Positions 22,682 through 63,904 of a stretch of 64,000 bases of DNA are shown piece by piece (the first letter of the stretch is position 1; each line of letters starts with the position of its first letter). Origin of the DNA: Patescibacteria group bacterium (lineage in GTDB: Bacteria > Patescibacteriota > Microgenomatia > CAYGWK01); contig JBMORX010000010.1 in assembly GCA_049322615.1 (NCBI GenBank), forward strand, positions 25,416 to 89,415, in the 5' to 3' direction. Below the pieces are notes generated by a model. The model ran no database searches. It was not told the DNA's origin and worked only from the letters and a program-made list of their open reading frames with translations. A program made the translations under genes and the position numbers.

Positions 22682-22724
<43 letters not shown>

Positions 22725-24548: not shown

Positions 24549-24579
<31 letters not shown>

Positions 24580-33116: not shown

Positions 33117-33153
<37 letters not shown>

Positions 33154-35137: not shown

Positions 35138-35174
<37 letters not shown>

Positions 35175-35217
35175 GGACCCGAGAGTCCATATCGACGGTC
35201 CGGTTTGGCACCTCGAT

Positions 35218-36723: not shown

Positions 36724-36842
36724 TAATAAATATGCTTCGGTGATAAGAGCGCCGTCGAACTACTCCTTTCCATTCCGAACAGGATAGTAAAAGGCGGCAG
36801 CGGGGACGATAGTTAGACCTTGTGTTTAGCGAAAATACCTCA
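36724..36842 (+). rRNA. rrf: 5S rRNA (119 nt)
   Basis: Helix I GCTTCGG..CCGAAGC; loop C region CCATTCCGAACAGGATAGTAAAAG; followed by a T-run. Confidence 0.65.
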
Positions 36843-37187
36843 TTGCCGAAGCTTTTTTATTGCGCAAATTAACGGGTCAGGGACGTTACGAAGCTTTACG
36901 TCCCGCTGACGATAGTTCCCCGTCTAACGGGGGCGAAAATAGGTCGAGGCCGGAGGACTTGAGCGCAAAAACTTATCCCGTTGAACCGCGTGGTCACGCG
37001 GCATGGGACTTTGCGCGGCGCTTCAAAGACGTTATTCCGCTTACAGGGATATTGTTTTCCTCCCCCAAAAGGGGTAAAATTAAAAAAATCCTAAAAAGAA
37101 AGAAGGTTGAGATGGGTGGGAAAAACAAAAGTATCACAAGAAGCAAAAGTATCACGAGTATCACGGGCTAAAAAAGAACCCCAGACA

Positions 37188-47530: not shown

Positions 47531-50500
47531 TTATTTAATTGTCATCCCCTCGACCGTAACTCCGCTTATATTCATATCTCCAGTTGCCAGATTAACTGTT
47601 TGGGTCATACACCAATCAGAGCTGCCACCACTAACTTCTGCTCTAACTCGATATTGATAAGTATGACCTGAAGAAACGTTGGTATCAGTATGAGAAGTAC
47701 TGTCAATTGCCTTGTCTATCAAAAAAGTAAATCCTCCACTATCGGTATTCTTTTCAATTCGATAACCTGTCTCAACCGCGGTATTGTCCTGCCATTTAAC
47801 TATCAGCTGACTTGGTTGACCGCTATCATCAATCAAACAACCTGTTGGTGGGTAAAATGAAGCGGTGGTAAAAGAATAAACCGGAGACTGGGTGGTACTC
47901 CAGATATTTGAACCGCCTGGATCAATCGCATAAGAGCGCCAATAATAGGTTGTTAGGGGAGAGAGAGCCGATTGAACAGTATAAGTCGCTTGAGTGCCTG
48001 AAGTGTAAGCAGTTCCTCCTTGGGTATTCTGACCCGACCAGCCAGTTTGAGAAGAGGTTTGGTCAAAGGTTTGGCAATTTTGAGTCATTCCAGAGTCGGT
48101 ACAAACTTGAATTTTATATCTTAGGTAATCGCTTTCGGTATCAGTGGCGGTAGTTTTCAAAGCAGGAGTTAGACTAACATTGGTGGCAGCGTTAGTTGGT
48201 GAATCCAAACTTGGCGTATTCGGACGATTGTTGATCGTGTAGTTAATAGTGACACTGGTAAGTTGGGGAGAAACTTGAGTGTCATTGGTGGAAAGAATGG
48301 CGCGATATTGAATATAACGATTAGCTGTCGAGGAAATAGTTGAGCCTCCCGGCGTCGTGAGATAGTTGGTATTTGAGCGGAAATCATCAAGGTACATGGT
48401 AAAACCTTCGGAAGCATCCAAAATTCGCAACCCTAGCCTAACAATGGCATTCCTGTCGGCAACGGAAACATCACCAATATCCCAATATTCTCTTTGCCAT
48501 TTGAAAACATCGGCATCAGTAGAGTAGCCGCCAGAAGGGGCAGTTCCCGACCAGGAAGAAACGGTGACCAGTCCTGAAGAAATTGAACTTACCTCTCCTT
48601 GCATAATATAGAGAGTGCCATTGTAATTTTCTCGGACAATGACGGTGTCGCCTTTATAAAGCCCGGTGGTTGAATCAGGGGTGAATTGGGTGTCCGAAGT
48701 TGAAGTCGGACCATCGGAACCAGCGGTGGTGACAAAATCAACATTTACCTGATGCGTTCTCAAGCTATATTGATAAGCCAGGCGGATTTCCTCAGGCGTG
48801 CGGGCGGTATTAGAGATGCGGACTTCGTCAATAATTCCTTTATAAAATTGAGTCATACTCCCATTATTATTAGCCGCTCCTATAGAAGCATTTGTGACGA
48901 CGAGGGCATTTCTTGAGGTTGTATCACTACCGATTTGATTGCTATCCAGGTAGAGTTTTCTGTCGCTGGCACTTGATTGAACAAAAGCCACATGATGCCA
49001 TAGACCATCGGAGACACTTTGAGAATAGGTAATAATACTACCGCCTGTTCCGCCACTGTCTCGATACCAAACTCGAATCCCACCATTGGTTGAAGGATTG
49101 TCTCCGTAGTAAATAATAAAGAGGTTATTGGACCAGTTTGCCGGGGTTCCCTCTGAGTATACGACCGGAGCAGTGGTGAAGACGCCTAATTCCGCTTTTG
49201 CCCAAAACTCGACTGTATAAGCAGTGCCTTCGGTGACTCCAATATCAGGGAGTCCAATATAGTCATTTAATCCATTAAAATATCTTCCATTACCAATTTT
49301 TCCTTGGGTAATGGTATGCTCTGGACCAGCATAATTACCTAAAGAGGTTAAAGAGCCATTGCTAATTAAATGGTTAGCGTAGCTTAAGGAGCCGGCATTA
49401 TAAATTACCTTTCTTATTGTTCCCGAACCGTTGGTAATGGCGATAGCATCAAAATATCCAGTTCTCGTTGAAGTGGTATCGTCCTCACAGGCAACATCAA
49501 AATAAGTAATTGTTTTGCCAACGTGACCACTTGGTAAGGCGATTTTTCGGTGGTACCATTTCCCTAGAGCCTTGGCATCGAGATCGGTATTAGGATGGGC
49601 ATTCAAGTTATTTTGATCAACAACACCGGCATCTCGAAGAGTTGCTCCATCAGAGGTGGTGTAATCAAAGGCGATCTTGTCAAGCGAAGCTGTCCAATAA
49701 ATATCGTATTCAAGATAATCTCCTGACTGAATAACATAGTCGGCAACTCCAGTTAAATCAATATAAGCATAGGAGTTTCCCGAGGCAGTCATCGAATAAA
49801 CAGTTCTTAAAGAATTATAGGAAGTGCCGTCATTATTGTTTGCTGAACTGTCGTCAAGATTAGTGGATTGGTCATCTAAATGCCAAAGACCCCTAGTGTT
49901 GGTATCTGTTCCATAAACCGAATGGTCCGTTTCCCCAATATAGGTTTCGGCAATGGTTCCTTGACGGTCAGCAGCAAAATAAAAGGGAACTTTGGTTTTG
50001 CCTGAAAGATCGGTTGAGGAGATGGTTTTTTGTAATCGATGGTCTCTTCCTGCCCGATAGGCTTCGGCAATTTCCTCGGCGGTCATCGCCGTCGCTTTGA
50101 CAAATGGTTCATCGATAATGCCGTCGAAAAACGAGGCAGGGGTGGAGGTCATTGACGCCCCAATTCCAAAAGAACCAGTGTTGTCGAAGATACCTGAAGA
50201 ATAAGAAGTTGTTCCGATTAATGCCCCATCAAGATAAATTTTTAAGGCAGAACCATCATAAACTCCGACTGCCAAATGCCATTGGTAAGTGGGAACGGCC
50301 GAAGTGCCCGAGACGCCGGCGAGGGCTGTTCCGTTTGAGGAGACTAAAAAATCTAGAGAGCCGTCGGCTGAACCCGAACAGGCGCCACAAACATAAAGAT
50401 AGTAACCATATTGTCCAGAATCTCCACCTTTGGTGACAATCGAATGGTCGGCGTCAGTGTTGGCATGGGGGTAAACCCAAGCCCCGACTGTCCAGCCACC

Positions 50501-53386
50501 ACTACCGGTATAGTCGAGTTTGGTTGTTCCTCCGCAATTTCCATCGGTACAAGAAAGATATTGACTTGAACCGGAAAATTCCCTGGCGCTTGAGAAAAAT
50601 CCGCTGTTGGTGACGGTTGCCCCGGTTGGGGTGAGGTCATTATTTAAGGAAGTTTCATCTTGAATATAAGCACTCGACCCTCCTGTTTCTTCTAAGTGCC
50701 AAAGACCTCGGGTATTGGCGTCTGTTTGGGGAGCGCCGACAGTGGATTTTAAGGAACCTGTACCTTCCATTTTAATCGTTGATTCATCGGTTTTGGTAAG
50801 CATCGTTGTACTTGAGGTTGACCAATTAGTGGCATCTGAATCCATTGAGGCAATAGCAGTTTCATTGGTGATTGGTCTCCACTCTTCCCAAGTGGAATTG
50901 TCAGCCGAGGTTCGGGTCTGAAATTCCACATCCGCCCCAACCCCGGCAACAGGTTCGGGAGAGGAGTATTGGTGGACCCTTAAGTCATCAACATAAAAAG
51001 TCGTAGTTCCGCCCCAATAGCCCTGAACCCTTATTTGGGTAATGGTTGTAATTTGTCCCGTAAGAGTTCCTACTTGGTTTCCATCTATAAAAAATGTTAT
51101 CTCACCAGTAGATTTCATCCTAATAGCAAATTTATGCCAGCCAGTGGTTCTAGCAACCGTTGTGGCAGTATAAGTGAAAGCTGTATTGTGATATACATAG
51201 TTAGTAGAAGAGCTATCTGTCCAAACTCCAATCCCAACTGTATTGGTGCCATCATATAACCGAATCACCTTAAAGGCGGTGGTGTCCGAGTCATCATACA
51301 TATCAAAAGTAAGATAAATATTGGGAGTAGTAAATGCCTTATAAGCCGTTATTGAGGTATCCACTGAGTTTGTCTGGACGAGCTTGCCGCTATAGCTACC
51401 TCTTTTTGCCTGCTCGGTTGAAGCTGACCAAGTGCCGGCAGTTGGATTGAGAACAGTCCAATCGCTAACATCCCCATCCTCAAAATTATCCCAAAAAGGG
51501 AAAGTAGCCGAGCCATTACTTCCGGTGCTGGCTCCGGAATTTCCATACCACATAAAGATAGTCGTAAAGGAACTGGCGGTGATTGAGTCCACCTCCACCC
51601 AAACCTTTGCCCAGGCGCCATCGGCTTTATCTTCAATCCAATAATCAAGACTTGTTCCTGAAGAATTAGTAAAGCGCAAATCATCAAAGTCTGTTTGCAT
51701 ATTGGAGTCATAGTCAACGTTGACTTTGACTTGATAATTAGTCAAAGTGTTGGAATTTTGGGTATTATCAATAATCACCGGTTTGTAGTTGCTCCAGCCT
51801 GGAAGTGAAGCGCTTGAAGAAGCAGTATCACTCCAAGATAAAGAATCAAGACTGGTAACTTTTGAAGTGCCGGAGGTTAGGTCAATTGAATCAGAAGTGT
51901 GGATTCCATAAGGAAATCTTTGGGCATCCTGGCGAATTTCCTCAGGGGTGCGGGCGATGTCAGAGATGCGGACTTCGTCAATTACACCATTAAAATAATC
52001 GCCACTATACCAAGACGCTTTACCAATTGTCGGGGCAGTGGTGTCTTGAGACAAGGCAGACGCAGTTCCAGTACCTGTCAAAATTCCATTTATATAGATT
52101 TTTATACTTGAACCATCCCAAGTGCCAGCAAGATGGCTCCATGTTCCGCTTGGAAGGGCAACCGTACTTGTTGCAGATGGGCATGTTGATGGGGTGCAGA
52201 TATTAAAAAATGGAATACCGCTACTTGTTACTTCTAATTTATAACCTATCCAATTCCCGCCATACTTTGAAAAAATAGCACAATTGGTATCGGCCCCTGT
52301 ACAGGTAAAATTAGTTGGTTTTACCCAGGCTTCAACAGTAACCGCTGATGTAGGTTTTAGTGAAGAAGAGTCAGAGAAAGAAATATAATCACTTGAACCG
52401 TTAAAACTCCGGGCATTGCCGAATTTGCCGGTGGTGACATTAGTGCTACTTGCTGATGTGCCGGTGTTTGAGTTTCCAGAGCTATCGGCGACAGTGGTGG
52501 TTCCTGAACTTTCATTCATATGCCATAATCCTACGGTCCGAATATCGGCTGCAAGTTCATGGTAGGGAAGCTCAAGTTTTGGCGAGGAGCCGGAACCAGC
52601 ATCGCTAATTCGATTGAAGGTGCCGGTGGAGAATTCAGAAGAGGTATCGTGGACGACCGAAGGGTCAATAATAACCGGATATTGGCGAGCCGGATGAGAA
52701 AGCCAGTCTGAAGAAGGCGAGATGATAATCTCGTAAGACGTAGAACCAGAAAGACTTGAACGCGAAACAACGCGGAGTTCAACCTCGGTGCTTCTGGCGC
52801 CCGCCGCATCAACCATAAAAGGCTTGGGAATATGGAAGCGATATTGACCATCTTGGGTGTCAATAAAGTAAGTTGAAACTCTGCCATCTAAGGATTTCCT
52901 TGGCACCGCATTCTTTAAATTAAGCGCGAATCTAAATTGCTTAATTGCTAGATTGCTAGATTGCTGATTGCTGAGAATAATTTCTTCCTTAATGCCTTTA
53001 TCGTTAAGCGAATATTTAATATCAATTCCCGGCTGGATATCTTTATAAAGAAGTGAGCTACAGTTCACCTCCGAGGTGGAAGAGGCTCCGCCTTCGGCGG
53101 AGAGACACCTCGGAGGTGGATTTCCAAATTCGGCAGGAGAAAATTCTGCGGACGAGTCTTCTTGTTCAAATTTGACTTTGGGTTTGTTTTCTTGAAGCCT
53201 ATCTCCCAGATATACTGCGAAATCTTTAGATATATTTTGATAGAGATAAGAGGTGGTTGGGGGAGCAGGTGATAATTGGGGGACAGAGGCTTTTTTGGGA
53301 GAAGGCTTAATTACGGAAAAAGCTATAATAATTATAATTATTATAATTGTTATAAATTTTATAATCTTTATAATTTTTTTCTTCAT
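47531..53386 (-). CDS. Giant secreted/surface protein (1951 aa) with LamG/concanavalin-like and FN3-like domains
   Basis: N-terminal signal anchor MKKKIIKIIKFITIIIIIIIIAF; three copies of the LamG-type core (SIKIYINGILTG..FNGVIDEVRISDIARTPEEIRQ; LKIYLDGALIGT..FDGIIDEP; KLYLDSNQIGSD..YKGIIDEVRISNTARTPEEIR); Ser/Thr-rich; FN3-like region near the N-terminus. Confidence 0.7.
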   Translation of the reverse strand: MKKKIIKIIKFITIIIIIIIIAFSVIKPSPKKASVPQLSPAPPTTSYLYQNISKDFAVYLGDRLQENKPKVKFEQEDSSAEFSPAEFGNPPPRCLSAEGGASSTSEVNCSSLLYKDIQPGIDIKYSLNDKGIKEEIILSNQQSSNLAIKQFRFALNLKNAVPRKSLDGRVSTYFIDTQDGQYRFHIPKPFMVDAAGARSTEVELRVVSRSSLSGSTSYEIIISPSSDWLSHPARQYPVIIDPSVVHDTSSEFSTGTFNRISDAGSGSSPKLELPYHELAADIRTVGLWHMNESSGTTTVADSSGNSNTGTSASSTNVTTGKFGNARSFNGSSDYISFSDSSSLKPTSAVTVEAWVKPTNFTCTGADTNCAIFSKYGGNWIGYKLEVTSSGIPFFNICTPSTCPSATSTVALPSGTWSHLAGTWDGSSIKIYINGILTGTGTASALSQDTTAPTIGKASWYSGDYFNGVIDEVRISDIARTPEEIRQDAQRFPYGIHTSDSIDLTSGTSKVTSLDSLSWSDTASSSASLPGWSNYKPVIIDNTQNSNTLTNYQVKVNVDYDSNMQTDFDDLRFTNSSGTSLDYWIEDKADGAWAKVWVEVDSITASSFTTIFMWYGNSGASTGSNGSATFPFWDNFEDGDVSDWTVLNPTAGTWSASTEQAKRGSYSGKLVQTNSVDTSITAYKAFTTPNIYLTFDMYDDSDTTAFKVIRLYDGTNTVGIGVWTDSSSTNYVYHNTAFTYTATTVARTTGWHKFAIRMKSTGEITFFIDGNQVGTLTGQITTITQIRVQGYWGGTTTFYVDDLRVHQYSSPEPVAGVGADVEFQTRTSADNSTWEEWRPITNETAIASMDSDATNWSTSSTTMLTKTDESTIKMEGTGSLKSTVGAPQTDANTRGLWHLEETGGSSAYIQDETSLNNDLTPTGATVTNSGFFSSAREFSGSSQYLSCTDGNCGGTTKLDYTGSGGWTVGAWVYPHANTDADHSIVTKGGDSGQYGYYLYVCGACSGSADGSLDFLVSSNGTALAGVSGTSAVPTYQWHLAVGVYDGSALKIYLDGALIGTTSYSSGIFDNTGSFGIGASMTSTPASFFDGIIDEPFVKATAMTAEEIAEAYRAGRDHRLQKTISSTDLSGKTKVPFYFAADRQGTIAETYIGETDHSVYGTDTNTRGLWHLDDQSTNLDDSSANNNDGTSYNSLRTVYSMTASGNSYAYIDLTGVADYVIQSGDYLEYDIYWTASLDKIAFDYTTSDGATLRDAGVVDQNNLNAHPNTDLDAKALGKWYHRKIALPSGHVGKTITYFDVACEDDTTSTRTGYFDAIAITNGSGTIRKVIYNAGSLSYANHLISNGSLTSLGNYAGPEHTITQGKIGNGRYFNGLNDYIGLPDIGVTEGTAYTVEFWAKAELGVFTTAPVVYSEGTPANWSNNLFIIYYGDNPSTNGGIRVWYRDSGGTGGSIITYSQSVSDGLWHHVAFVQSSASDRKLYLDSNQIGSDTTSRNALVVTNASIGAANNNGSMTQFYKGIIDEVRISNTARTPEEIRLAYQYSLRTHQVNVDFVTTAGSDGPTSTSDTQFTPDSTTGLYKGDTVIVRENYNGTLYIMQGEVSSISSGLVTVSSWSGTAPSGGYSTDADVFKWQREYWDIGDVSVADRNAIVRLGLRILDASEGFTMYLDDFRSNTNYLTTPGGSTISSTANRYIQYRAILSTNDTQVSPQLTSVTINYTINNRPNTPSLDSPTNAATNVSLTPALKTTATDTESDYLRYKIQVCTDSGMTQNCQTFDQTSSQTGWSGQNTQGGTAYTSGTQATYTVQSALSPLTTYYWRSYAIDPGGSNIWSTTQSPVYSFTTASFYPPTGCLIDDSGQPSQLIVKWQDNTAVETGYRIEKNTDSGGFTFLIDKAIDSTSHTDTNVSSGHTYQYRVRAEVSGGSSDWCMTQTVNLATGDMNISGVTVEGMTIK

Positions 53387-53946
53387 CTTGATTTTCCTTT
53401 CTTAAACTCTAGTCTTTTTCTAAACAGGTTTTCTCTAAATCCGCCCTCTTTGATAAATCTTTCCTCGGTCCAGCGGAGTTTTTGGTCTAACAGAGAGTTG
53501 GTTTGGTTGATAAGACAGATTAGGGTGTTGGCGGCCGTCTCGGGAGATTTCTGAATATAAATTTTATAATCTTTATAACTTTTATAATTTTTATAGGCGA
53601 TTCTTCGAATCGCCAGGGATCGAGGATCGTCTTTCAGCCAAAGAGTAAGTCCTCTTTGTCTTAAAAAATCTAAGAAGTCGTTTAGAAGTTCTTCGTAGGA
53701 GCCCCGAGAAACTCCTAGCATCTTTAATCTCCCTTCAACGCTTTTTTGGAGGTAGCCCTCGGCAATGCACTGTTTGCCGGATCTTGCGGCTTGAGTCATT
53801 TGCTCTTTTTGGCGAAGAGAGCGGATATAGCGGTCGCAAAACTCAACCGTTCCATCGTAAACAATCTCCGCCTGTTGGAAGAAGGGAAGGGTTTTATAAC
53901 CGCTAGGTTTCAAACTCTGCTTATAACCTTTATAATTTTTATCCAT
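53383..53946 (-). CDS. Four-helix-bundle protein (TIGR02436-like, the '23S rRNA intervening-sequence protein' family) with an N-terminal Tyr/Lys-repeat extension
   Basis: MTQAARSGKQCIAEGYLQKSVEGRLKMLGVSRGSYEELLNDFLDFL matches the family's xQxxRAAxSxxxNIAEGyxR...ARGSxxEL pattern; N-terminal YKNYKSYKDYKIY repeats. Confidence 0.55.
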   Translation of the reverse strand: MDKNYKGYKQSLKPSGYKTLPFFQQAEIVYDGTVEFCDRYIRSLRQKEQMTQAARSGKQCIAEGYLQKSVEGRLKMLGVSRGSYEELLNDFLDFLRQRGLTLWLKDDPRSLAIRRIAYKNYKSYKDYKIYIQKSPETAANTLICLINQTNSLLDQKLRWTEERFIKEGGFRENLFRKRLEFKKGKSR

Positions 53947-53947
53947 C

Positions 53948-56900
53948 TTAATTTATTATCCACCAGTTAAACCTTATCTCTTGGTCAATTGGGGTATCAA
54001 TTCCAACCTTAAACCATTCGCCAGATTTCTTGGCCGAAACGTACAAGACCTTATTTTGAGTATCTGAAACTGGAGTAAGATAAACTAAAGTATTTTCGCT
54101 GACTTTTGGATTAAAAATTGTAAATTCAGTTGAGCCCGCAGGTAAAATTCCCAACCCCGAGGTGGCGTTAGTTCGGATTTCTGCCAGGCTTGCCGATTGG
54201 GTAGCCGAGTAATCGGCGGCAATGACCAGAGAGGCAAATTGGGCTGAACCCGAAGCATCGATTGAGGCGACGGTCTCCCCAAGCGGGTTTTGAATCGCCA
54301 AGAGCTTGCCAAAAGCAGATTCTTCTGGGGAGGTCGAACCTCCGGAGAGGTTCGACCTCTTAAGGACTAAACCAGAAGCCGAGATCTCACCGCCGACTGC
54401 CAGATTGCCGGCGACCTGAACATTGCCATCGGTATCAATCGTCATCTTTCCTGCCAGAATATCAACTGGTCCCCAACCAGAGGACTGAAGACGGAGGACA
54501 GAAGACGGAAGAGAGTTGATACCCGTGCTGTCGATAACAACTGCTCCATCAACCATTAATTGTCCAGCCACAGTCGTGTCAGCCAAAGAGGTTCGGCCTA
54601 AAACCTTTAAGTTTGCGGTGATTTTCAGGTCAGAAGAAGGATCGGTGATTGGCCAAGATTGAGTCTCAGCTAAAAGACTGCTTGCAGTTGCGGTTTCGTT
54701 GGCATATGATAGAGTTGGCGTGGGGTTGGCAGGTTGGCTGGATGGGCTTGTCAAGCCACGTCCATCGGGTTCAACTCCCGACAGCTCCACGCCCTCTTGA
54801 GATTGGGACTTGACAGGCGTGTTATTATCTGTTATATTATTGTCAAGCTTGACAGGCCCATCTATTAGCGAACTTGCTGGACTTACCAGAGCCGCTTCAT
54901 TTGAGGCGGTTTTTTGGTTCTCGAGATTTTCTAACCTTGCCAATAATTCTCCAAAGCTGCCCCTTAAGGCGCTTATTTCTTTAGTTTCTATCTTGTCCGC
55001 GTAGAGGGTGCCGGAAACCGTCGCATCTTGGGTTACTTGTAACGTCTCACTTGTCACCTGTCCGGCGAAGCTTGCTGAGCCGGAAGAATCTATACTCGCC
55101 ACCGTTTCTCCTTGCTCATTCTGAACCAGAAGCTTGCCGAAGCCAGATCCTTCGGAGGTCGAACCTCCTTGGAGGTTCGACCTCTTAAGGGAAATCACGA
55201 TTTCCGAAGAGTCTGGTAATGGTGAAATAATTCCAGTCTCAACCACCGGCGAGATAATCTTCTTCTCGGCGATTAATCTTTGTCCAAAAATCGTTCCTGC
55301 TTCGTCAATTGAGGCAATGGTTTTACCAAGAGAGTCTTTAATCTCAAGAACTTTTTCAGCTACATCAACTGCCTTCTTGGTGTTAATAACTACCTTATTT
55401 AAAGTGGCTACTCCCAATTCGTCAATTAACCAATTGCCGTCCGTTGATTTAATAGTCTTAGTCACTATTTCCTGGGCTTGTATTTGTTCCTCTGGTGGTG
55501 AGTCTTGGTTCCAAGAGAGATTGGCAAAGGCGGTAACTTCTCCTAGGGCATTGATGTCTCCATTGGTTTCAAAGGGAGAAAGGGCGATTCCGATAGTTCT
55601 TACTTTACCGGTCGCCTTCATTGCCCGACCCGGGACAGGTGAGGCCGTCAAGAAATCGCCTCTTTTGATCGAGCCGCCAATTCCAGAAACCTTAACTGGA
55701 ACACGACCCGCAAGAGCAAGAGGATATTTAAATTTAGCTTCGGGCATATCGCCGTCAAGAGTTATAGCGGGCGCAGTCGAAATAATACCCAAAACATCCC
55801 CTTGATTAGCCTTTGTAGTCCTTACCAGGTTTTCGTTGTTATTTGGGTCAACAGCAACTAGTTCTCCCGGTTCAAGGGGCATACTAGCGGGAAACATTTC
55901 TGCTAAATCAAAACCGTTAGATAGACGACAACATTGAGCATACCAACCCGGATTACAAGTTCCGGGGCAGGAGCCTCCCCCTGAAACAGAGGTACATTTA
56001 TAAGTGGTGGAAATATTACTACAAGCAGTATTCCCGGTTATACCATTGCAATCTGCGGAAGTTGTACATTCAATATTTAACGCCGTACCACTTTTTCTTA
56101 TTTGACCAGTAAAGTTAATATCTCCGGAAACATCTAATTTATAGGAGGGCCCCGTCGTCCCGATGCCGACGTTGCCGTTCATATAAATCTTACCTTCACT
56201 ATCTACAATTTCCCCATAACCCGCATGCTTATACATCTGAATGTATGCACCAGCAGTACCTTCGTACAATCTTAATTTCGCTTCGCTACCACTTGTAGAT
56301 GTTCCAGCAACAATGTCCCCTGCAACTGCCAATTTAAAATTTGAACCAAGATTATTCCAGATATTAGAACCAACTTGTGTGAGATACGCTGGACTCGTCG
56401 TCCCGATGCCGACATTGCTACCATCCAGAGTCATTACATTCGCAACACCGAGATTAGTGAAAGTCAATTTACTACTTAAATTTTCGATTCTCCAGGTTTT
56501 TCCTGCGGTAGAGTTTGTAAGGTCCAGTTGGACATCGCCAGCACGTTCAATATCTAAAGCAACTGTTGGACTTGTCGTCCCGATTCCGATATTGCCAGCG
56601 TTGGTAATTCTTAGCCTTTCTGTTGCTCCGGCGTCGCCTCCAACCGAGGTATAAAAAGCCAAATCGCCAGCGTTTAAGGTATAAATCTTGGAAAGTCCGG
56701 AAGTGGGGAGAAGAGTAAGATTGGGGGTGCCGGAAATTGAGGCAATTCCACCCATCGTTAAATTGCCAACATTAATTAAGTTGTCACTTGCAAGAGAAAT
56801 ATTATTTGAGGCAGCGTTAATGGTAATATCTCCTGAACTATTGCTAATTAAAGATTGGGCGCCGCCAACAGTCAAACTTCCACTTTGGGTGGAGGAACCG

Positions 56901-59900
56901 CCGGCATCCAAAGACCATTTAGAAACACCATTATTTTGAATATCAAAGAGTTTCCTGCCAGTAGAGAGAGTATTTGCGGTATTGAAAAGATAAGCAGTAT
57001 TTGAGCCGGTATCAGCCACCGTTGAAAGCAAGGTTAATTGTCCGCTTGCGCCAATGGTAAAAGAGGTATAATTTGAGGCATTGTAGGCAAGCCTTAATTG
57101 CTCGGTTGTCTTTAAGACCTCCAAAAGAGCGTTCGGTGAAGTCGTCCCGATGCCGACGTTGCCGGCGACTAAAAGGGAATTGGTGGAAGCGGCTGGGTCT
57201 AAGAAATAGGCAGTATTGGCGGTATCCACAAACCGAGCGGCATTAACATAGTTTGAAGAATCAATCGTCACTCCGCCGGAATTAAAAGAAGCGGTTCCGG
57301 TGGTAGTAATATTGCCGGCATTAGAAATTGTAAATCTGGGGGTGCCAGAGGAGGAGGCGGTAAAGATGTCATTTACTGTTCCGGTTTCATTTAGGATGGT
57401 CAAAGCCTTGCCGGTGGTAGTGCCATCAACATGAAGTTTGGTTAAAGGAGAGGTGGTGCCAATGCCGACGTTGCCAGAAATATACGTGTTGTGTGCCAAA
57501 ATCCCGTTACCGACAAAGTTATGAGTCCCCTCAACCTCTATGTCATAAACTTGTTCTTCTCCTACATACTTAATGGATTGGATTTTGTCCCACACCACAT
57601 ATGGTTCGGAGTTCGAAGAGCGAAGATCGGAGAAAGAAACGGTAGCGATAGAATCGCCAGGCTGGAGATAGATTACTTTTGACCAGAGGAGGTTTTGAGA
57701 TAATTGATGAGGCTGGTAATCATTTTGCGAATCTGATGGGTTTGTCCCAACAGAGGCTTGATTTGCTGTTCCGTCAGATAGCCTAATTCCACTGCCAGTC
57801 TGAGACAGGCTACTACCTCGAAGAGGCTGCCTCTGGCTTGATAGAGAAACTGGATAAACTCTGTCTTGTGATACCTGCCCGACCCCTCGGCTAGGTTGAG
57901 GAGAATCGAGACCACCGCTCTCCTTAACTGATCCGCCAGACCATACTGTTCGTGTTTGGGAAAATTCGTAATCAGTTGATAAACTGCCTTGACTAAGATC
58001 ATAGTCTTTTTCCAAACCTCCAGTTTCTCGAAGTTGAACTCTTCGTTGGTATTCATCATAAGTTAATTGTACCAGATAGGGATGGTTACCAGTAGTTCTA
58101 ATTTCTTTGCCGCTTTCAGTCTTGAGCTTAAAGACTGGTTTAATCCCCATGTCCAAAAGTTTGTTAATCTTCGCTGGTTGAACTTTACCTGTCTGCTCAT
58201 TCCTTGAGTAAACCAGTGTTCCTGGTTGAACATCTTTAATCTGAACTTCGCTCTTCGAACTTCGATCTTCAGAAACTTCACCTTGTTTATCTAGGTCTTG
58301 AGTAACAATAGAGAGGAGGGTATCACCGGTAACGCACTGACCTTCAACGTGAAGTTTCTGAACAGGCCCCGTCGTCCCGATGCCGACGTTGCCGCTTACA
58401 TATAAAATATTGTTCCCTGCCCCTGGACTTCCACCTACTCCAAACCCCCCGCTGGTATAGAATTGCCCCCACCCAGTCGAGTAAATAATACCCGCTTGAG
58501 TATTATCTGTACGAGTGCTTTCAATAAGAGCAGTATCTGAATCAGCCGCAAAATTCAATGCAGCATTATTAAACCCAGCGCCGATGATAACATTACCTCC
58601 ACTAACATGTAACTTCGCCCCCGGTCCCGTCGTCCCGATGCCGACGTTGCCGGAGGCTAATAACATCGTGTCACTGCTACGTCCACTCTCTCGAAATCCC
58701 AAACCGGCACTTGAGGTAATTCTTGCGTTATTGCTGTCAAAAGTCAGAATATTTCCATAGTTTAAGGTTTCAACACCTTGGGTAGTAACTGTCCAACGAT
58801 TAGCCGTCCCATCTGACAAAATCAGTGAGGGATTTGACGAAGAAGAATCCTGAACAACAAATCTCGCCCCCGGCCCCGTCGTCCCGATGCCGACGTTGCC
58901 GGCGTTAGTGATGGTCATTCTTGGAGTTAGTCCCGCATCTCCACCAACCGAGGTCTGGAAATCAAGCCTTGAGCCATTTAAGACATCAATCGTTCCTGGC
59001 GAGGTTCCTCGTAAAACCAAACTCCCTGAAGCCGAGGCATCTCCGACAATATCAAGCGAATCATCAGTCTTAAGCCAATTGGCGGCCGAGCGGTAAAGAT
59101 TAGTGTCAGTTCCAAAAGTAATTCCCGAGGCAGCGTCGCCATCAGTTGAGGCAAGTTGTAAAGAGTAAGTATCGGCATCAGCAATATAAAGACCAATATC
59201 AGTTGAGCCGCCAGCAGTTTGATTGCCAATGTAGATACCATAATTGTTGGAAAGGGTTCCGCCACCACTATTTATGGCATCACCAACATAAAAGCCGTAG
59301 GCGTTAGTTATTGTTCCGGTTGAGAGATTGGACCGACTGGTATAAAACGAATAGGCATTGTTAACTGTTCCATTAGAGGTGTTTTCTATCGAAGCATAAT
59401 TGCCGGCTGCTTGGGTAACAGTTCCCGAGCCGGCATGGATCGCCTTGGCGTTGGTTCCCCACAGGGCACCGATATTTTGCGCTCCCATTCCGTAAGCCTG
59501 TGCCTGGTGTCCATAGAAGTTGGCGGTTGAGGCGGAGGCTGGGTTGGCGACAGCTTCGGTGTAGAGAGCGGTTACCTCTCCACTGGTGTTTGTAAAAACT
59601 TCTCTAGACATTGTGGTTTTAGTTGTGTCAAAGAAACCGCCGGAGCCGAGGGCAACGTTGCTAGCAGCGAAAAATTGATCATCTGTTCCCAATCTGTTTG
59701 CCGCCGAGCGGTAAAGGTTGGTGTCAGGAGCCCCTGAACCTGAACCCCATCGAAGATAACCAGCACTTGCTCCGGTACCAATGACTTGAAAGTAGGCAGA
59801 ATTGGTGGCAGTTCCTCCAATTAAAAGATCATCAGTAATATTAGTGGGGGATAAAGCCCCGGCGTTTCTCTGCCAATATCCGGAGGTTCCTGTTCCCGGA

Positions 59901-62900
59901 GCGTAGATATTATTAACATAAAGATTATTCCAATATAAAGCAGAGGAGCCCAGATTGTAAGTAGAGGTAGCTGAAGGAAGAAGATTAGCCGTTAAGGAAA
60001 CATCTCCTCCTGAAGGAGCGATGGTTAAATCGCCCCCTGAAGAAACAGTAAAGGTTGTCTGATTTGAACCATCATATTCTAATTCTAGTTGAGTCGCTGT
60101 GCCACGCACCGACAGCTTGCTGTCTGGTGCTGTGGTCCCGATGCCGACGTTGCCGCCAGATTTTAAGTACACCTGATTTGCCGTTGTATCTGTCCCTAAA
60201 GCCACATCAGATCCGCTTGCAGTATTTCGTATTCTTGCAACTCCAGGACTTCCAGGATTTTCTATGGTAATGTCCCCATTGTAGATGTGAAGTTTAGTAC
60301 TTGGTCCCGTCGTCCCGATGCCGACATTGCCTACCGTATTTACCGTCAAAGCCGGTGTCCAAGAGTTAACTCCGGATTTGTAGTCAAGAGTAAGTATGCC
60401 ATTAGTTCTTGGTCTGACTGCTCCTCCCGAAGCAAGATACAGATTACTGGAAACAGAAGCATCGCCGGAGACATCAAGTGTAGCTAAAGGAGAGGTGGTC
60501 CCAATCCCAATCTGACTGCCAGTTTCGTAGATTATCGAATCAGTTAAAGATGAAGAAGTACTCCATTTCGGAATGTAATTTTGCGTTCCTGAACCCGAAA
60601 CCCCACTTGCTCCTGAAGCAACTGCCTTCCAAGAAGAACCATCACAATAGTAGTATTCATCTTGGGCATTGTCATAGTACATTTTCCCTTCAGAGGAAGC
60701 ATTACAAGTTCCGGCATATGCCTGAACTTGCGGACCAAGGGAAAGAGTACCGGAAATAGTCGCATCCTCGGCCAAAGTTAAATCATTGAGAATATAGGTA
60801 TTATGAGCGACAATCCCATTAGCGACAAAATTATGGGTTCCCTCAACCTCAATATCATAGACCTGCTCATGACCTACATACTCAATTGAGGCAATTTTTG
60901 CCCACTTGACTCGGCTGCCAATTCCTTCACCATCCGAGGAGTCCTTCGGCCACCTCGGAGGTGTTCCCTTGGCAGCCTCGTCCGAAGTGTCAGCAACGGC
61001 AATTTCCATTCCCGGCTTAAGGTAAATTACCTTAGTCCATTGTCCATTGACAGGAGAATGATTATCTGTTAGATTGTTTTTAATGGTTTTTGATTTAAAG
61101 CTAGCCAAATTGCTTTCTGATTTTTTCTTAGACATTGCCAAGGCATTTTTTATTGCAACTTTTGTAACACCATCCTTAACAGGAGTCTCTTCAACCCCTG
61201 AACTATTTTTAATATTGACAAAGGGATTAGGTAATGTTACGATGTTTTTAGTCCTTTCCTGGTATTTAGCTAAATTGGAGGAAAGATTATGAATCAAATC
61301 AACTGGCTTGATGTTTTCAACTCGGCGACTACCTTTGGTGTTTTGACTGTTATTGCCGTTGCCTTGTTGTTCTTGCTTTTCCGAAGAGATTTCGGCTCCA
61401 AATCCACCAAGCGATGAGAGTTTAACCAGATACGGATGGTTTCCGGTTGTTCTTATCTGTCTTCCGTCTTCAGTCGTCAGTCTATAGACTGGTTTGACCC
61501 CCATATCCAACAATCCCTTGATTTTCGCCGGCTCGATTTTACCAGTTTTTTCGTTTAAGGAAAGAACATATTCTCCACCTTTAATGTCCTTGATCTGGAC
61601 GAAGGAGATATTAGGTGATTTTTCTTTTTTGTTTTCGCTCTTAGTATCATAGTCTCTTAGTATCTTAGTATCTTCTGTTGCCACGATTGGTAAAAGACTG
61701 TCTCCTGTAACACATTGTCCTTCTACATGGAGCTTTTGGGTAGGACTCGTCGTCCCGATGCCGACGTTGCCGCTACTTCTTTGAATAAACATTCTCGGTG
61801 TCCCTGGATACGCCGCCGATTCATCAGAGATTTGAAAATCCCCATTGGTCGTTGTCATCTGCATACCCCATGAATATGAACCTCTCTGTATCAAGGCTAT
61901 TGCAGGCATGTAAGCCGTACTGCTAACCTCTGCCAAAATTTGACCCTCTGTAGTGGAATCCTTTTTTACATTGAGTGCCCAGCTTGGCCCCGTCGTCCCG
62001 ATGCCGACGTTGCCATCATTTCGGACATAAAGTAGGGAAGTCCCCGAGGAATTGTAAACCTGAAGTCCGGCTTTAGTTGAGTCGGCGGTTGAACCTTGGA
62101 TATAAGTATTGTGAGCCACAATCCCGTTAGCGACAAAGTTAGCCGTATTGGCAATTTGAAGATCATAGACATGCCTTGTACCGGTTTTTTTAATAGAAAC
62201 AATTTTCTCCCAGCCTAGGGTAGGAGACTTGACATCGCCACTTTCATTTATGCTAGAATGGGAATCGGTGAGGAAATTATCTTCAGACCAGCGGAGAGCA
62301 TTTACAGAATTTTGGGCTAATTTTGCCGTTGTTTGGTTAGCCGCAGGGGTTGTCCCCTCATTTGTGACCGGTAAAATTAGTGTTGAAGAAGTTAAATCAG
62401 TGGTCGCCTCTCTCGTTTGGGGTGGAGTTTCTTTATTGTTTATGCTATATTTTAGTAGAGGAGGCAAGAAATGAATTTCTGGCCGGCTTATGCCCTCGCC
62501 TCGGCGATGACGGCGGCGATTATTGTTTTCATTTATTTTCTTGTTAGAAAAGGATAAATTATGTCTGATACCACGGCCACGGTTGTCATCTTGTTGTCCA
62601 TGGTTATTGCTGTCTTTGTTCTCTGGCGTCTTTCCCGCGAGCGTTGAGGAGACCCCTTTAGTCAAGACGGCGATTTCCTGATTTTTATTAAGATAGACGA
62701 CCTTTTCCCAACCTTCTTTAGTTAAGTACGGATGATTTCCGGTGGTTTCGATTCTTTTTCCTGATTCGGTTTTTAGTTCATAGACTTCCTGAATACCTTT
62801 ATCCAGAGTTTTTTCCACTTTCTGCCATTCAAATTTGCCAGTTTGTTCGTTTAAAGAAAGGACTTGGTCGCCAGGTTTTATATCTTTAATCTTCTCTCTT

Positions 62901-63904
62901 CGCCCTTCTCTCTTCTCACTTCTCTCTTCGCCCTTCTCTCTTCTCACTTCTATTAAGGAATTCTCTTCCACACATTCGCCGATGACCTTAAGTTTATTTG
63001 TTCCCGGGTCGGTCGTTCCAATTCCGACATTCCCTAAATTATTAACCGTCAAGGCCGGTGTCCAGGAGTCGACTCCGGATTTATAGGAAAGAGAAAGACT
63101 ACCGCTGGTCCTTGGTCTGACTTCTCCTCCGGCGGCAAGATATAAGTTCCCGGAAACCGAAGCATCTCCAGAAACATCAAGTTTAGCCAGGGGAGAAGTT
63201 GTTCCAATTCCAATCTGGGAACCAGTCTCATAAATAATAGAGTCAGTCAAAGTCGAGGAAGTAGACCACTTGGGAATATAATTTTGTGTTCCCGAACCCG
63301 AGACGCCACTTGTTCCTGAAGCCACTGCTTTCCAAGAAGAACCATCACAGTAGTAGTATTCATTATTAGCATTGTCATAGTACATCTTTCCTTCAGAAGA
63401 AGCGTTACAAGTCCCAGCGTAAGCCTGAACCTGGGGTCCTAAAGCCAAAGTCCCAGAGATAGTGGCATTACCGGCAATATCGAGTTTCTGCGATGGAGAA
63501 GTTGTCCCGATGCCGACGTTGCCGCTATCAATGACCATTCTCGTGCCACCTTGATAGAAACTGAGTTTTCCTCCAGTATCAATATTTTTGCCAATTATCC
63601 ATTTGGTAGAATCTGCATCACCTGTAGCAAAGAAGCCGATTGAAGCTTCTGCATTGGCAGTTGAAGCAATTGCCTGAATTTGGCCATAACTAGTTGTACC
63701 GTACACTGACAGTTTTGCGCTTGGTCCCGTCGTCCCGATGCCGACGTTGCCATTCGTTATCGTCATTGTCTCTGTTCCACCGGCTACTAGACCTAATTTA
63801 TCTGCCGCAGTGCTGTAAAGACCGGTATTTGTATCACCTGTAAATGTTAAAGATGGCGTTGCCGCCGCCCCTGCTGGTAAGAGAGCATATCCAGAAGAAT
63901 TCAC
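53948..63904 (-). CDS. Giant repeat-containing surface protein (>3318 aa), interrupted by three inteins; the N-terminus runs off the window (the same frame stays open to 64000)
   Basis: More than 25 copies of G-N-V-G-I-G-T-T-(S/G)-P modules (DNA motif gtcgtcccgatgccgacgttgcc on the + strand); Ser/Thr/Gly/Asn-rich beta-type repeats; Cys-rich segment TGNTACSNISTTYKCTSVSGGGSCPGTCNPGWYAQCC near the C-terminus. Confidence 0.7.
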   Translation of the reverse strand: MNSSGYALLPAGAAATPSLTFTGDTNTGLYSTAADKLGLVAGGTETMTITNGNVGIGTTGPSAKLSVYGTTSYGQIQAIASTANAEASIGFFATGDADSTKWIIGKNIDTGGKLSFYQGGTRMVIDSGNVGIGTTSPSQKLDIAGNATISGTLALGPQVQAYAGTCNASSEGKMYYDNANNEYYYCDGSSWKAVASGTSGVSGSGTQNYIPKWSTSSTLTDSIIYETGSQIGIGTTSPLAKLDVSGDASVSGNLYLAAGGEVRPRTSGSLSLSYKSGVDSWTPALTVNNLGNVGIGTTDPGTNKLKVIGECVEENSLIEVRREKGEERSEKREGRREKIKDIKPGDQVLSLNEQTGKFEWQKVEKTLDKGIQEVYELKTESGKRIETTGNHPYLTKEGWEKVVYLNKNQEIAVLTKGVSSTLAGKTPENKDSNNHGQQDDNRGRGIRHNLSFSNKKINENNNRRRHRRGEGISRPEIHFLPPLLKYSINNKETPPQTREATTDLTSSTLILPVTNEGTTPAANQTTAKLAQNSVNALRWSEDNFLTDSHSSINESGDVKSPTLGWEKIVSIKKTGTRHVYDLQIANTANFVANGIVAHNTYIQGSTADSTKAGLQVYNSSGTSLLYVRNDGNVGIGTTGPSWALNVKKDSTTEGQILAEVSSTAYMPAIALIQRGSYSWGMQMTTTNGDFQISDESAAYPGTPRMFIQRSSGNVGIGTTSPTQKLHVEGQCVTGDSLLPIVATEDTKILRDYDTKSENKKEKSPNISFVQIKDIKGGEYVLSLNEKTGKIEPAKIKGLLDMGVKPVYRLTTEDGRQIRTTGNHPYLVKLSSLGGFGAEISSEKQEQQGNGNNSQNTKGSRRVENIKPVDLIHNLSSNLAKYQERTKNIVTLPNPFVNIKNSSGVEETPVKDGVTKVAIKNALAMSKKKSESNLASFKSKTIKNNLTDNHSPVNGQWTKVIYLKPGMEIAVADTSDEAAKGTPPRWPKDSSDGEGIGSRVKWAKIASIEYVGHEQVYDIEVEGTHNFVANGIVAHNTYILNDLTLAEDATISGTLSLGPQVQAYAGTCNASSEGKMYYDNAQDEYYYCDGSSWKAVASGASGVSGSGTQNYIPKWSTSSSLTDSIIYETGSQIGIGTTSPLATLDVSGDASVSSNLYLASGGAVRPRTNGILTLDYKSGVNSWTPALTVNTVGNVGIGTTGPSTKLHIYNGDITIENPGSPGVARIRNTASGSDVALGTDTTANQVYLKSGGNVGIGTTAPDSKLSVRGTATQLELEYDGSNQTTFTVSSGGDLTIAPSGGDVSLTANLLPSATSTYNLGSSALYWNNLYVNNIYAPGTGTSGYWQRNAGALSPTNITDDLLIGGTATNSAYFQVIGTGASAGYLRWGSGSGAPDTNLYRSAANRLGTDDQFFAASNVALGSGGFFDTTKTTMSREVFTNTSGEVTALYTEAVANPASASTANFYGHQAQAYGMGAQNIGALWGTNAKAIHAGSGTVTQAAGNYASIENTSNGTVNNAYSFYTSRSNLSTGTITNAYGFYVGDAINSGGGTLSNNYGIYIGNQTAGGSTDIGLYIADADTYSLQLASTDGDAASGITFGTDTNLYRSAANWLKTDDSLDIVGDASASGSLVLRGTSPGTIDVLNGSRLDFQTSVGGDAGLTPRMTITNAGNVGIGTTGPGARFVVQDSSSSNPSLILSDGTANRWTVTTQGVETLNYGNILTFDSNNARITSSAGLGFRESGRSSDTMLLASGNVGIGTTGPGAKLHVSGGNVIIGAGFNNAALNFAADSDTALIESTRTDNTQAGIIYSTGWGQFYTSGGFGVGGSPGAGNNILYVSGNVGIGTTGPVQKLHVEGQCVTGDTLLSIVTQDLDKQGEVSEDRSSKSEVQIKDVQPGTLVYSRNEQTGKVQPAKINKLLDMGIKPVFKLKTESGKEIRTTGNHPYLVQLTYDEYQRRVQLRETGGLEKDYDLSQGSLSTDYEFSQTRTVWSGGSVKESGGLDSPQPSRGVGQVSQDRVYPVSLSSQRQPLRGSSLSQTGSGIRLSDGTANQASVGTNPSDSQNDYQPHQLSQNLLWSKVIYLQPGDSIATVSFSDLRSSNSEPYVVWDKIQSIKYVGEEQVYDIEVEGTHNFVGNGILAHNTYISGNVGIGTTSPLTKLHVDGTTTGKALTILNETGTVNDIFTASSSGTPRFTISNAGNITTTGTASFNSGGVTIDSSNYVNAARFVDTANTAYFLDPAASTNSLLVAGNVGIGTTSPNALLEVLKTTEQLRLAYNASNYTSFTIGASGQLTLLSTVADTGSNTAYLFNTANTLSTGRKLFDIQNNGVSKWSLDAGGSSTQSGSLTVGGAQSLISNSSGDITINAASNNISLASDNLINVGNLTMGGIASISGTPNLTLLPTSGLSKIYTLNAGDLAFYTSVGGDAGATERLRITNAGNIGIGTTSPTVALDIERAGDVQLDLTNSTAGKTWRIENLSSKLTFTNLGVANVMTLDGSNVGIGTTSPAYLTQVGSNIWNNLGSNFKLAVAGDIVAGTSTSGSEAKLRLYEGTAGAYIQMYKHAGYGEIVDSEGKIYMNGNVGIGTTGPSYKLDVSGDINFTGQIRKSGTALNIECTTSADCNGITGNTACSNISTTYKCTSVSGGGSCPGTCNPGWYAQCCRLSNGFDLAEMFPASMPLEPGELVAVDPNNNENLVRTTKANQGDVLGIISTAPAITLDGDMPEAKFKYPLALAGRVPVKVSGIGGSIKRGDFLTASPVPGRAMKATGKVRTIGIALSPFETNGDINALGEVTAFANLSWNQDSPPEEQIQAQEIVTKTIKSTDGNWLIDELGVATLNKVVINTKKAVDVAEKVLEIKDSLGKTIASIDEAGTIFGQRLIAEKKIISPVVETGIISPLPDSSEIVISLKRSNLQGGSTSEGSGFGKLLVQNEQGETVASIDSSGSASFAGQVTSETLQVTQDATVSGTLYADKIETKEISALRGSFGELLARLENLENQKTASNEAALVSPASSLIDGPVKLDNNITDNNTPVKSQSQEGVELSGVEPDGRGLTSPSSQPANPTPTLSYANETATASSLLAETQSWPITDPSSDLKITANLKVLGRTSLADTTVAGQLMVDGAVVIDSTGINSLPSSVLRLQSSGWGPVDILAGKMTIDTDGNVQVAGNLAVGGEISASGLVLKRSNLSGGSTSPEESAFGKLLAIQNPLGETVASIDASGSAQFASLVIAADYSATQSASLAEIRTNATSGLGILPAGSTEFTIFNPKVSENTLVYLTPVSDTQNKVLYVSAKKSGEWFKVGIDTPIDQEIRFNWWIIN
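57488..58336 (-). mobile_element. Intein C (283 aa) with an embedded alternative-frame four-helix-bundle ORF
   Basis: ..KLHVEGQ|CVTGDTLLSIV...TTGNHPYLVQL...THNFVGNGILAHN|TYIS; the central about 400 nt encodes a TIGR02436-like protein in a different frame. Confidence 0.7.
57673..58059 (-). CDS. Four-helix-bundle protein (TIGR02436-like, 128 aa) encoded inside intein C in an alternative frame
   Basis: FEKLEVWKKTMILVKAVYQLITNFPKHEQYGLADQLRRAVVSILLNLAEGSGRYHKTEFIQFLYQARGSLFEVVACLRLAVELGYL matches the family consensus closely. Confidence 0.6.
   Translation of the reverse strand: MMNTNEEFNFEKLEVWKKTMILVKAVYQLITNFPKHEQYGLADQLRRAVVSILLNLAEGSGRYHKTEFIQFLYQARGSLFEVVACLRLAVELGYLTEQQIKPLLGQTHQIRKMITSLINYLKTSSGQK
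60800..61714 (-). mobile_element. Intein B (mini-intein, 305 aa)
   Basis: ..KLHVEGQ|CVTGDSLLPIV...TTGNHPYLVKL...THNFVANGIVAHN|TYIL. Confidence 0.7.
62108..62974 (-). mobile_element. Intein A (mini-intein, 289 aa) in the giant protein
   Basis: ..KLKVIGE|CVEENSLIEV...TTGNHPYL...FVANGIVAHN|TYIQ: Cys1, block B TxxH, terminal HN, +1 Thr; low-complexity linker instead of an endonuclease domain. Confidence 0.7.

Follow-up and report, generated by a model that had tools for sequence, protein, structure and literature searches.

A 23S rRNA intervening-sequence-type gene nested out of frame within a mini-intein of a Patescibacteria surface-protein gene

An overlapping gene within an intein

We analysed a 64,000-nucleotide (nt) stretch of DNA from a Patescibacteria group bacterium (GenBank assembly GCA_049322615.1, contig JBMORX010000010.1, positions 25,416–89,415; hereafter the window), centring on a giant minus-strand open reading frame (ORF) for a repeat-rich surface protein that is interrupted by inteins. 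One of these, intein C, shares 387 nt with a second gene, read from the same strand in the +1 frame, that encodes a small four-helix-bundle (4HB) protein of the S23p (23S_rRNA_IVP) family, known from intervening sequences (IVSs) of 23S rRNA. The part of the host ORF in the window is the C-terminal portion of a 5,631-amino-acid (aa) product (NCBI MFZ5366523.1, from a Patescibacteria metagenome-assembled genome (MAG)), whose NCBI name is taken from its N-terminal integrase-SAM-like domain. This product is rich in GNVGIGTT repeats, which contain the motif GNVGIGTT.P..KL.V.G. The three Hint/intein elements in the window (A, B and C) all break the repeat motif at an equivalent point and are alike in their Cys start, block B (TTGNHPY) and AHN end followed by Thr. 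The host gene, its inteins and the subdivisions of intein C are as follows.

53948–63904, minus strand: host gene, giant ORF; 3,318 codons within the window, running past the window edge
62108–62974, minus strand: intein A, within the host gene
60800–61714, minus strand: intein B, within the host gene
57488–58336, minus strand: intein C; 283 aa, host aa 1857–2139; Cys1, block B TTGNHPY, block F VYDIEVEGTHNF, C-terminal AHN, +1 Thr
58061–58336, minus strand: N-terminal Hint subdomain of intein C, aa 1–92, through block B; the host frame is the sole coding frame
57674–58060, minus strand: host-frame linker over the 4HB gene (the shadow); 129 codons, no stop, S/Q/G-rich, predicted disordered
57673–58059, minus strand: 4HB gene (S23p/23S_rRNA_IVP family); 128 aa plus TAA, in the host +1 frame
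57488–57672, minus strand: C-terminal Hint part of intein C (W.KVIYLQPGD...), with blocks F and G

By its motifs, intein C is a complete Cys1...His-Asn/Thr mini-intein, with every catalytic motif in place (slashes mark the splice junction). It matches Intein_splicing (PF14890, 1.1e-20), TIGR01445 (4.4e-9) and TIGR01443 (8.6e-10). Its N terminus (C1VTGD...) and C-terminal end (VYDIEVEGTHNF...GILAHN/T) provide the class 1 Hint nucleophile, the TxxH of block B, blocks F and G, the His-Asn pair and the +1 Thr, and block B residues T81, T82, N84, H85, P86 and Y87 are invariant among 14 sequences. The intein interrupts the host motif GNVGIGTT.PVQKLHVEGQ / TYISGNVGIGTT, and the excision junction, KLHVEGQ/TYISGNVGIGTT, reads as coherent host sequence, like the uninterrupted GNVGIGTT.P..KL.V.G.T repeats elsewhere in the protein. 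Codon log-odds over the N-terminal Hint part were positive in the host frame alone. AlphaFold2 (AF2) models built from 14 sequences gave the Hint core a predicted local distance difference test (pLDDT) score of 74–90; aa 106–215 scored about 30 and lacked secondary structure, and two further Hint loops, at aa 14–25 and 237–244, were of low confidence (pLDDT <50). No homing endonuclease of the LAGLIDADG, HNH or GIY-YIG type was found in the insert, the host frame matching Intein_splicing only and the alternative frame the 4HB family only.

The 4HB ORF begins one base downstream of a host codon boundary, with ATGATG five codons past the HPY of block B, and its stop overlaps the W-S-K-V codons of the host. 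Its product matches PF05635 (3.9e-38, positions 1–105 of 106, 130.3 bits against a cut-off of 33.8) and TIGR02436 (1.3e-36, 125.1 bits against 24), as well as the solved 4HB proteins PDB 2GSC (4e-20) and 2RLD (7e-4), each with five chains per entry. The original prediction for this DNA, made from the letters and a list of ORFs, had placed a 4HB-family gene at 57673–58059 inside an intein at 57488–58336; these coordinates were exact, and the two family profiles exceeded their cut-offs on the alternate frame. Matches to models of Avd, the accessory protein of diversity-generating retroelements (DGRs; bAvd), were weak and below both curated cut-offs (NF033474, 39.5 against 80; PF22296, 36.5 against 40), and a crude YxDD motif scan of the window gave no convincing reverse transcriptase. 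An exact look-up of the 128-aa product in a gene-call collection found no called gene; gene callers report only the giant ORF, which makes the 4HB gene an annotation blind spot. Programmed frameshifting into the 4HB frame is unlikely, as this frame has stops 1–5 codons before the start. By eye, the ATG is preceded at a distance of 6 nt by a TGnTACAAT motif, which L081 (described below) shares and which falls inside conserved block B codons.

Recurrence at other loci

The suggestion that 4HB genes be sought within inteins of other genomes was borne out: the same arrangement was verified in DNA at six other metagenomic loci, which with the window makes seven independent assemblies.

L081 (Ga0172364_10023230): 849-nt intein, identical in length to intein C; 4HB protein 75% identical, same position and offset; host frame open to the contig end
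L162: confirmed with the 4HB hidden Markov model (HMM)
L161: locus cut by the contig end; confirmed with the 4HB HMM
L165: confirmed with the 4HB HMM
L166: confirmed with the 4HB HMM
L169: intact 4HB ORF

In all copies the insertion site lies after block B, the offset is +1 and the host frame has no stop where 5–7 are expected (probability of an open frame at most 2.5e-4 each); where scored, the 4HB HMM gave E-values of 1e-35 to 1e-43. Start and stop positions of the 4HB gene are conserved among the copies, although the start itself varies: the window and L081 have ATGATG, L165 and L166 have GTG, and L162 has an ATG accompanied by an AAAGGAG Shine-Dalgarno sequence. L161 and L162 were located by a search with the mini-intein core, as fragments whose host-frame insert resembles the window shadow.

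An exhaustive profile search of 1.84 billion representatives yielded 235 fetched proteins, of which 14, each standing for a protein cluster, gave a full-length match (70–200 bits) to an HMM of the shadow only; Microgenomates and other Patescibacteria MAGs were among the sources of these carriers. Word-indexed protein searches with the shadow peptide alone and with a four-sequence profile had returned nothing, which we attribute to limits of the index because the exhaustive search later gave the 14 carriers. Some relatives, P0017 and P0105 among them, seem to have truncated or diverged versions of the 4HB ORF. Host proteins of the copies fail to align beyond the immediate extein motif and the 4HB-bearing intein occupies non-equivalent positions in them, from which it seems that the unit of intein and 4HB gene moves among repeated target motifs.

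The 4HB gene is inserted in the loop after block B, the usual endonuclease site of inteins, as had been proposed at the outset. Relatives are split or carry other inserts at this loop. A same-clade intein from Zambryskibacteria (L163; MHVH01000005.1, 1–4530) is split exactly after block B: the gene for the N-terminal half ends at 639, three genes (one encoding Bro-N) follow, and the gene for the C-terminal half runs from 3331 into a protein with an S74 peptidase domain. In P0092, precomputed annotation places PF01936 beside PF14890, as an in-frame-looking domain at the same loop, and the insert of P0106 is similar by eye; P0099 and P0105 share, also by eye, an insert with ...GK(R/S)SPAH(F/I)AAY.VH... 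at that loop. The split and the other inserts mark the loop after block B as the cargo site of the clade, within which the 4HB case stands apart: its cargo is read in another frame, and the intein remains in one piece.

A host frame kept free of stops

Across the 129 shared codons the host frame contains no stop and the third sense frame contains 12. When the 4HB protein was held fixed and its synonymous codons were re-drawn or shuffled, the host frame was open in 0 of 20,000 synonymous resamplings and 0 of 20,000 within-gene codon shuffles, with 6.25 stops expected. The original prediction had judged a 387-nt stop-free host frame improbable by chance, and these simulations agree; its premise of AT-rich DNA fits less well, as the window has a GC content of 42.7% and is not very AT-rich. 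Free-standing 4HB homologues (n = 81) carry a mean of 9.3 stops in the equivalent frame, with a minimum of 1, and of 163 homologues taken from contigs of genomes and metagenomes, a single one had that frame open: L081, itself the orthologous intein copy.

The same avoidance is seen at individual codons. Stop-risk contexts are those in which a 4HB codon precedes AA, AG or GA, where a T at its third position would create a host stop; third-position T occurred in 0 of 190 such contexts over five copies, compared with 27.5% in other contexts (Fisher P 6e-22) and, for free-standing genes, 25.7% in stop-risk contexts (P 3e-24). Because the 4HB codons avoid every T-AA, T-AG and T-GA junction, ribosomes on the host gene can cross the cassette. 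The overlap offers a clean natural case of codon-level selection over 387 nt of shared strand. The shadow peptide, first described as low-complexity, is S/Q/G-rich, with 23 S, 15 Q and 14 G among 129 residues; by the AF2 models and the substitution pattern described below, the host-frame insert is a by-product, predicted to be disordered, under demand only to stay stop-free.

Selection on the two frames

Comparison with L081 showed that the phase of substitution changes at the overlap. At host codon positions 1, 2 and 3 the substitution frequencies were.38,.27 and.63 in the N-terminal Hint subdomain and.39,.23 and.14 in the overlap, where they correspond to positions 3, 1 and 2 of the 4HB frame, indicating that substitutions follow the 4HB codon phase. 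The 4HB frame had a ratio of nonsynonymous to synonymous rates (dN/dS, Nei–Gojobori) of 0.22; the same bases read in the host frame gave 1.5, and the intein flanks stayed below about 0.2. In ten pairs drawn from five copies, position 3 of the 4HB frame exceeded position 1, and position 1 exceeded position 2, without exception (10/10). Over these pairs pN/pS was 0.34–0.50 in the 4HB frame and 1.1–1.5 in the host frame, with pairwise pS near saturation for the distant pairs. Identity to the window copy was 75, 58 and 52% for the 4HB protein and 55, 31 and 38% for the shadow.

The 4HB frame is under purifying selection and intact in every copy, whereas the host frame of the overlap evolves freely as protein and is constrained solely to remain open. 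Both frames are open and constrained across relatives, the pattern by which functional same-strand overlaps are recognized. The original prediction had raised true dual coding as one possibility and named codon periodicity as a check; seven assemblies with the same +1 offset, an intact 4HB gene and a stop-free host frame, together with the selection on the 4HB frame, support it. The further idea that the host frame itself might be under purifying selection across relatives does not hold for the overlap, in which dN/dS is 1.5 and the constraint is on openness alone.

Stem and heptamer arrays

Paired arms flank the 4HB gene within and around intein C.

58240–58265, minus strand: helix I1, 5' arm; tandem heptamers, period 7, 3.6 copies at 58246–58270; in a disordered Hint loop
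57606–57631, minus strand: helix I1, 3' arm; 26 nt, 88% complementary to the 5' arm and 608 nt from it; in a second disordered Hint loop
58345–58362, minus strand: helix I3, 5' arm; N-extein codons VQKLHVE
58268–58285, minus strand: helix I3, 3' arm; 18 nt, 94% complementary; abuts the I1 5' arm
57580–57607, minus strand: helix I2, 5' arm (weaker support); abuts the I1 3' arm
57477–57504, minus strand: helix I2, 3' arm (weaker support); spans the intein/C-extein junction

The position of helix I1 is shared by the five complete copies (the window, L081, L162, L165 and L166), but its sequence differs in each, the arms covarying between lineages. Its arms span 18–30 bp, and it scores 15.5–19.7 by ungapped matching, against about 8 ± 1.2 for simple shuffles. 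Tandem Repeats Finder reported period 7 with 3.6–4.4 copies in the window, L081, L165 and L166, and the heptamer units of the arms are TCGAAGW, GTTCAGA, GTTCATT, GTTCAAA and GTGGAGA. The I1 arms fall in the AF2-disordered Hint loops at aa 14–25 and 237–244, the nearest such loops. No stem helix was found in inteins A and B.

Similar stems accompany the family outside inteins. Among 132 free-standing homologues, the best helix between the 250-nt flanks scored at least 18 in 28 cases (0 in shuffles) and at least 14 in 49 (2 in shuffles); period 7 was present in 17 of the 28 stems scoring at least 18, and arms typically lay no more than about 30 nt from the ends of the ORF. Because stems flank free-standing 4HB genes that lie in no intein, the stem is a property of the 4HB family, not of inteins; A and B lack it. 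Enclosure by a heptamer stem seems to be a cassette design shared across the family, in settings other than rRNA IVSs as well.

In the free-standing set (L001–L160), PF05635 genes from Bacteroidota, the candidate phyla radiation (CPR) and other groups were often enclosed by inverted repeats (for example L085, L003, L087, L135, L047 and L010), whose arms consist of tandem 6–8-nt repeats, mostly heptamers.

Interpretation

The S23p/PF05635 ORF and its heptamer stem probably constitute an IVS-type 4HB cassette nested in the +1 frame in the mini-intein loop, with the intein acting as a safe harbour and the shadow removed by protein splicing. The cassette sits in the loop after block B of the mini-intein, and the mini-intein in turn in the giant surface-protein gene. 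The shadow peptide would leave the host protein together with the intein, so that the host tolerates the cassette. The 4HB protein would be translated separately, from its own ATG or GTG start, on the full mRNA or on a sub-transcript. By analogy with 23S rRNA IVSs, the long stem may be cut by RNase III, which could free 4HB mRNA from transcripts that are not under translation. The unit of intein, 4HB gene and stem would spread among repeated GNVGIGTT..KLHVEGQ/TY sites. The original prediction had suggested that such genes are passengers of excisable elements in general; consistent with this, the intein copy keeps its S23p/4HB ORF within a heptamer inverted-repeat stem of about 26 bp, as in a 23S rRNA IVS.

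Several observations weigh against this account. All sequences come from metagenome assemblies, and 4HB expression is inferred only; the window copy lacks a Shine-Dalgarno sequence, as do most genes of the window, and the S23p ORF of the Coxiella IVS is probably not translated (PMC4990558). The account would also require that about six host-frame stops were cleared when the cassette arrived. The stem raises difficulties of its own: the 5' arm of I1 is 181 nt upstream of the ORF and the 3' arm 42 nt downstream, so that essential Hint codons are enclosed by the stem as well, and cutting by RNase III would sacrifice the mRNA of the host gene. The sense and antisense duplexes have similar energies, and G-U mismatches are as frequent as A-C ones; with no strand preference in either, the arms could act in DNA.

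In one alternative, the 4HB protein is a working partner of the intein, a non-nuclease replacement for the homing endonuclease that binds the heptamer arrays (as DNA or RNA) and promotes copying into empty GNVGIGTT..KLHVEGQ/TY sites. Intein, 4HB gene and stem have been inherited together over deep divergence, the unit occurs at non-equivalent positions in different host proteins and the 4HB gene occupies the usual endonuclease site; moreover, the arms hold about four tandem heptamers and two solved 4HB relatives have five chains per entry (PMC4990558), and the family is related to Avd, a nucleic-acid-binding DGR protein and homologous small helical bundle (PMC10053308). Profile searches, however, found no nuclease motif or family match, the same cassettes and stems occur without any intein at 28–49 of 132 loci, and inteins A and B of the same protein persist with neither 4HB gene nor stem, and we regard a partnership of this kind as distinctly unlikely. 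Somewhat less doubtful, although still improbable in our estimate, is a reading in which intein, 4HB gene and heptamer stem make up an autonomous composite mobile unit, with a 4HB oligomer recognizing its own heptamer arrays in RNA or DNA and controlling the processing or copying of the unit. Were it correct, it would give a first functional handle on the large S23p/PF05635 family, rRNA IVS proteins included, and would mean that selfish cassettes can colonize protein-level introns by way of an evolved stop-free overlap.

If the 4HB ORF were a neutral, non-expressed relic and only the host frame mattered, it would resemble the S23p ORF of Coxiella, which is apparently untranslated and decaying (PMC4990558); the lack of an obvious ribosome-binding site (RBS) in the window copy and the seemingly truncated or diverged relatives P0017 and P0105 would fit. 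Full-length intact ORFs with strong HMM scores in seven copies, substitutions in 4HB codon phase with a dN/dS of 0.22 and conserved start and stop positions make this very improbable. We give even less weight to the idea that the host gene is not read through, intein C being split or the locus comprising two genes or a pseudogene with an incidentally open frame. Close relatives of the clade are indeed split at exactly this loop, but a split arrangement would impose no stop-free constraint, and every 4HB-bearing copy has zero host-frame stops against the 5–7 expected; nor was a start codon or RBS context found for a separate C-terminal half. The chance that the offset is an assembly or sequencing artefact, with the 4HB truly an in-frame intein domain, appears negligible even with data that consist of metagenome assemblies and nothing more. 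Seven independent assemblies, produced by different projects, share the offset; the 4HB frame ends in a stop of its own and has others 1–5 codons upstream of its start; and an artefact would neither clear stops from the other frame nor deplete T at 190 of 190 risk sites. A frameshift hiding an in-frame 4HB domain, one of the outcomes that the original prediction had named as its own refutation, would require compensating double frameshifts, which cannot recur in seven assemblies or explain the stop-free host frame.

Relation to known systems

The closest counterpart of the cassette is the S23p-bearing IVS of 23S rRNA (Coxiella burnetii helix-45, Leptospira), whose ORF is likewise a member of PF05635/TIGR02436. 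In Coxiella the IVS ends in a stem of 28 bp, inside which RNase III cuts, and tandem heptamers immediately precede the S23p start (PMC4990558); a Xanthomonas S23p homologue forms a pentameric toroid (PMC4990558), and 23S_rRNA_IVP ORFs are known from CPR rRNA insertions (PMC11270868). Both elements place the ORF within terminal inverted repeats, with a stem of about 26–28 bp and tandem heptamers in the 5' arm, inside sequence that the host later removes. They differ in location, since the cassette of intein C resides in a protein-coding intein and not in a 23S rRNA helix, and in mode of removal, which is by RNase III for the IVS and, for the cassette product, would be by splicing at the protein level. 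The intein ORF also shares its nucleotides with an open host frame, its stem arms are displaced from the ORF by 181 and 42 nt into tolerant Hint loops, and it is under clear purifying selection whereas the Coxiella ORF is decaying.

Like the endonuclease domains of LAGLIDADG inteins such as PI-SceI, the cargo of intein C lies in the Hint fold after block B, dispensable for splicing and co-inherited with the intein. It is, however, a separate +1 ORF outside the nuclease families instead of an in-frame fusion, and the insert in the intein's own frame is, by prediction, a disordered by-product peptide. Same-strand overlapping genes, whether from viral overprinting or long bacterial overlapping ORFs, likewise have two frames of which one product is disordered and fast-evolving; here, by contrast, the conserved partner belongs to a long-established, widespread family that entered the locus and is not a de novo ORF, and the 'new' frame is only stop-free, its product presumably discarded by protein splicing. 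Naturally split inteins, of which the DnaE type is the classical case, offer a further parallel in L163, where genes lie between the halves at the same loop of the same intein clade and host motif; intein C is unbroken, as the gene inserted in it leaves the host frame open.

Inteins are not known to carry cargo other than as in-frame domains. Full-text literature searches combining inteins with overlapping genes or alternative frames, IVS proteins or CPR revealed no account of an intein that holds a gene in a different frame. One selfish element seems here to take refuge in another in a manner not described before, adding to intein cargo a category of free-standing genes in another reading frame. 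One cassette type, the 4HB ORF with its heptamer stem, occurs both in rRNA IVSs, with removal at the RNA level, and in an intein, where removal would be at the protein level, which supports the view that such cassettes survive where the host can erase their footprint. For a very common uncharacterized family, the heptamer arrays, the possible RNase III site and the pentameric relatives provide leads.

Other features of the window and its relatives

Inteins A and B carry inserts of 125–150 aa of odd composition, which follow EIAV in A and block B in B; these had no family match, no 4HB gene and no long-range stem. Antisense ORFs within A and B (62229–62474 and 61074–61292, plus strand), alike by eye, had no BLASTP similarity and no Pfam or NCBIfam match, and antisense ORFs of 60–220 aa are common along the whole host gene, among which these two are not outliers. 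In two relatives (L167 and L168) the antisense frame is also open, with weak similarity (E 0.006) for which composition could account. The antisense ORFs of inteins A and B are not supported as real genes.

Scans for known RNA families in 57300–63100 gave none at E ≤ 1, and promoter and terminator scans gave counts not above those of shuffles. A 4HB HMM run over the window found two genes only, with no further 4HB remnants and none in the 23S rRNA gene (31503–35313). The second is a 187-aa gene at 53383–53946 (minus strand) with a TIGR04258 four-helix-bundle suffix domain, wedged between the pair of giant genes and ending in a stop that overlaps the start of the gene after it; no flanking stem was found. 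Directly downstream of the host gene lies the second giant gene (47531–53386, minus strand; 1,951 aa), by eye a secreted or surface protein.

At L169, a PF05635 gene (7179–7580) directly follows the giant gene, and a tRNA-like element (222–291, minus strand) occupies the antisense strand of the intein insert immediately before the 4HB ORF and leaves the host frame open. The element scored 32.5 bits (E 4e-11) with the tRNA-like ends of the tmRNA model, below the gathering threshold, and ARAGORN called no tRNA. The peptides VEVGGIEPP, GRDSNPHP and AGNRTPE in the inserts of P0105, P0106, P0127, P0131, P0179 and P0007 look like this element translated. At L168 (544–2142), an A-type intein fragment has its N-terminal Hint segment duplicated internally; directly after it come a transposase gene of the Y1 (IS200/IS605) type and a HicAB pair, and the locus may be rearranged.

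The rRNA operon of the window is also atypical. Its insertions, taken with the sources of all the relatives, put the organism among the CPR/Patescibacteria. Its 16S gene (22676–25051) is 2,376 nt long and contains a group I intron (23474–23703); about 6.4 kb with tRNA-Ile and ORFs separates it from the 23S gene, which at 3,811 nt exceeds model length by about 890 nt, and at 36634–36851 a partial second 5S match lies beside the full 5S.

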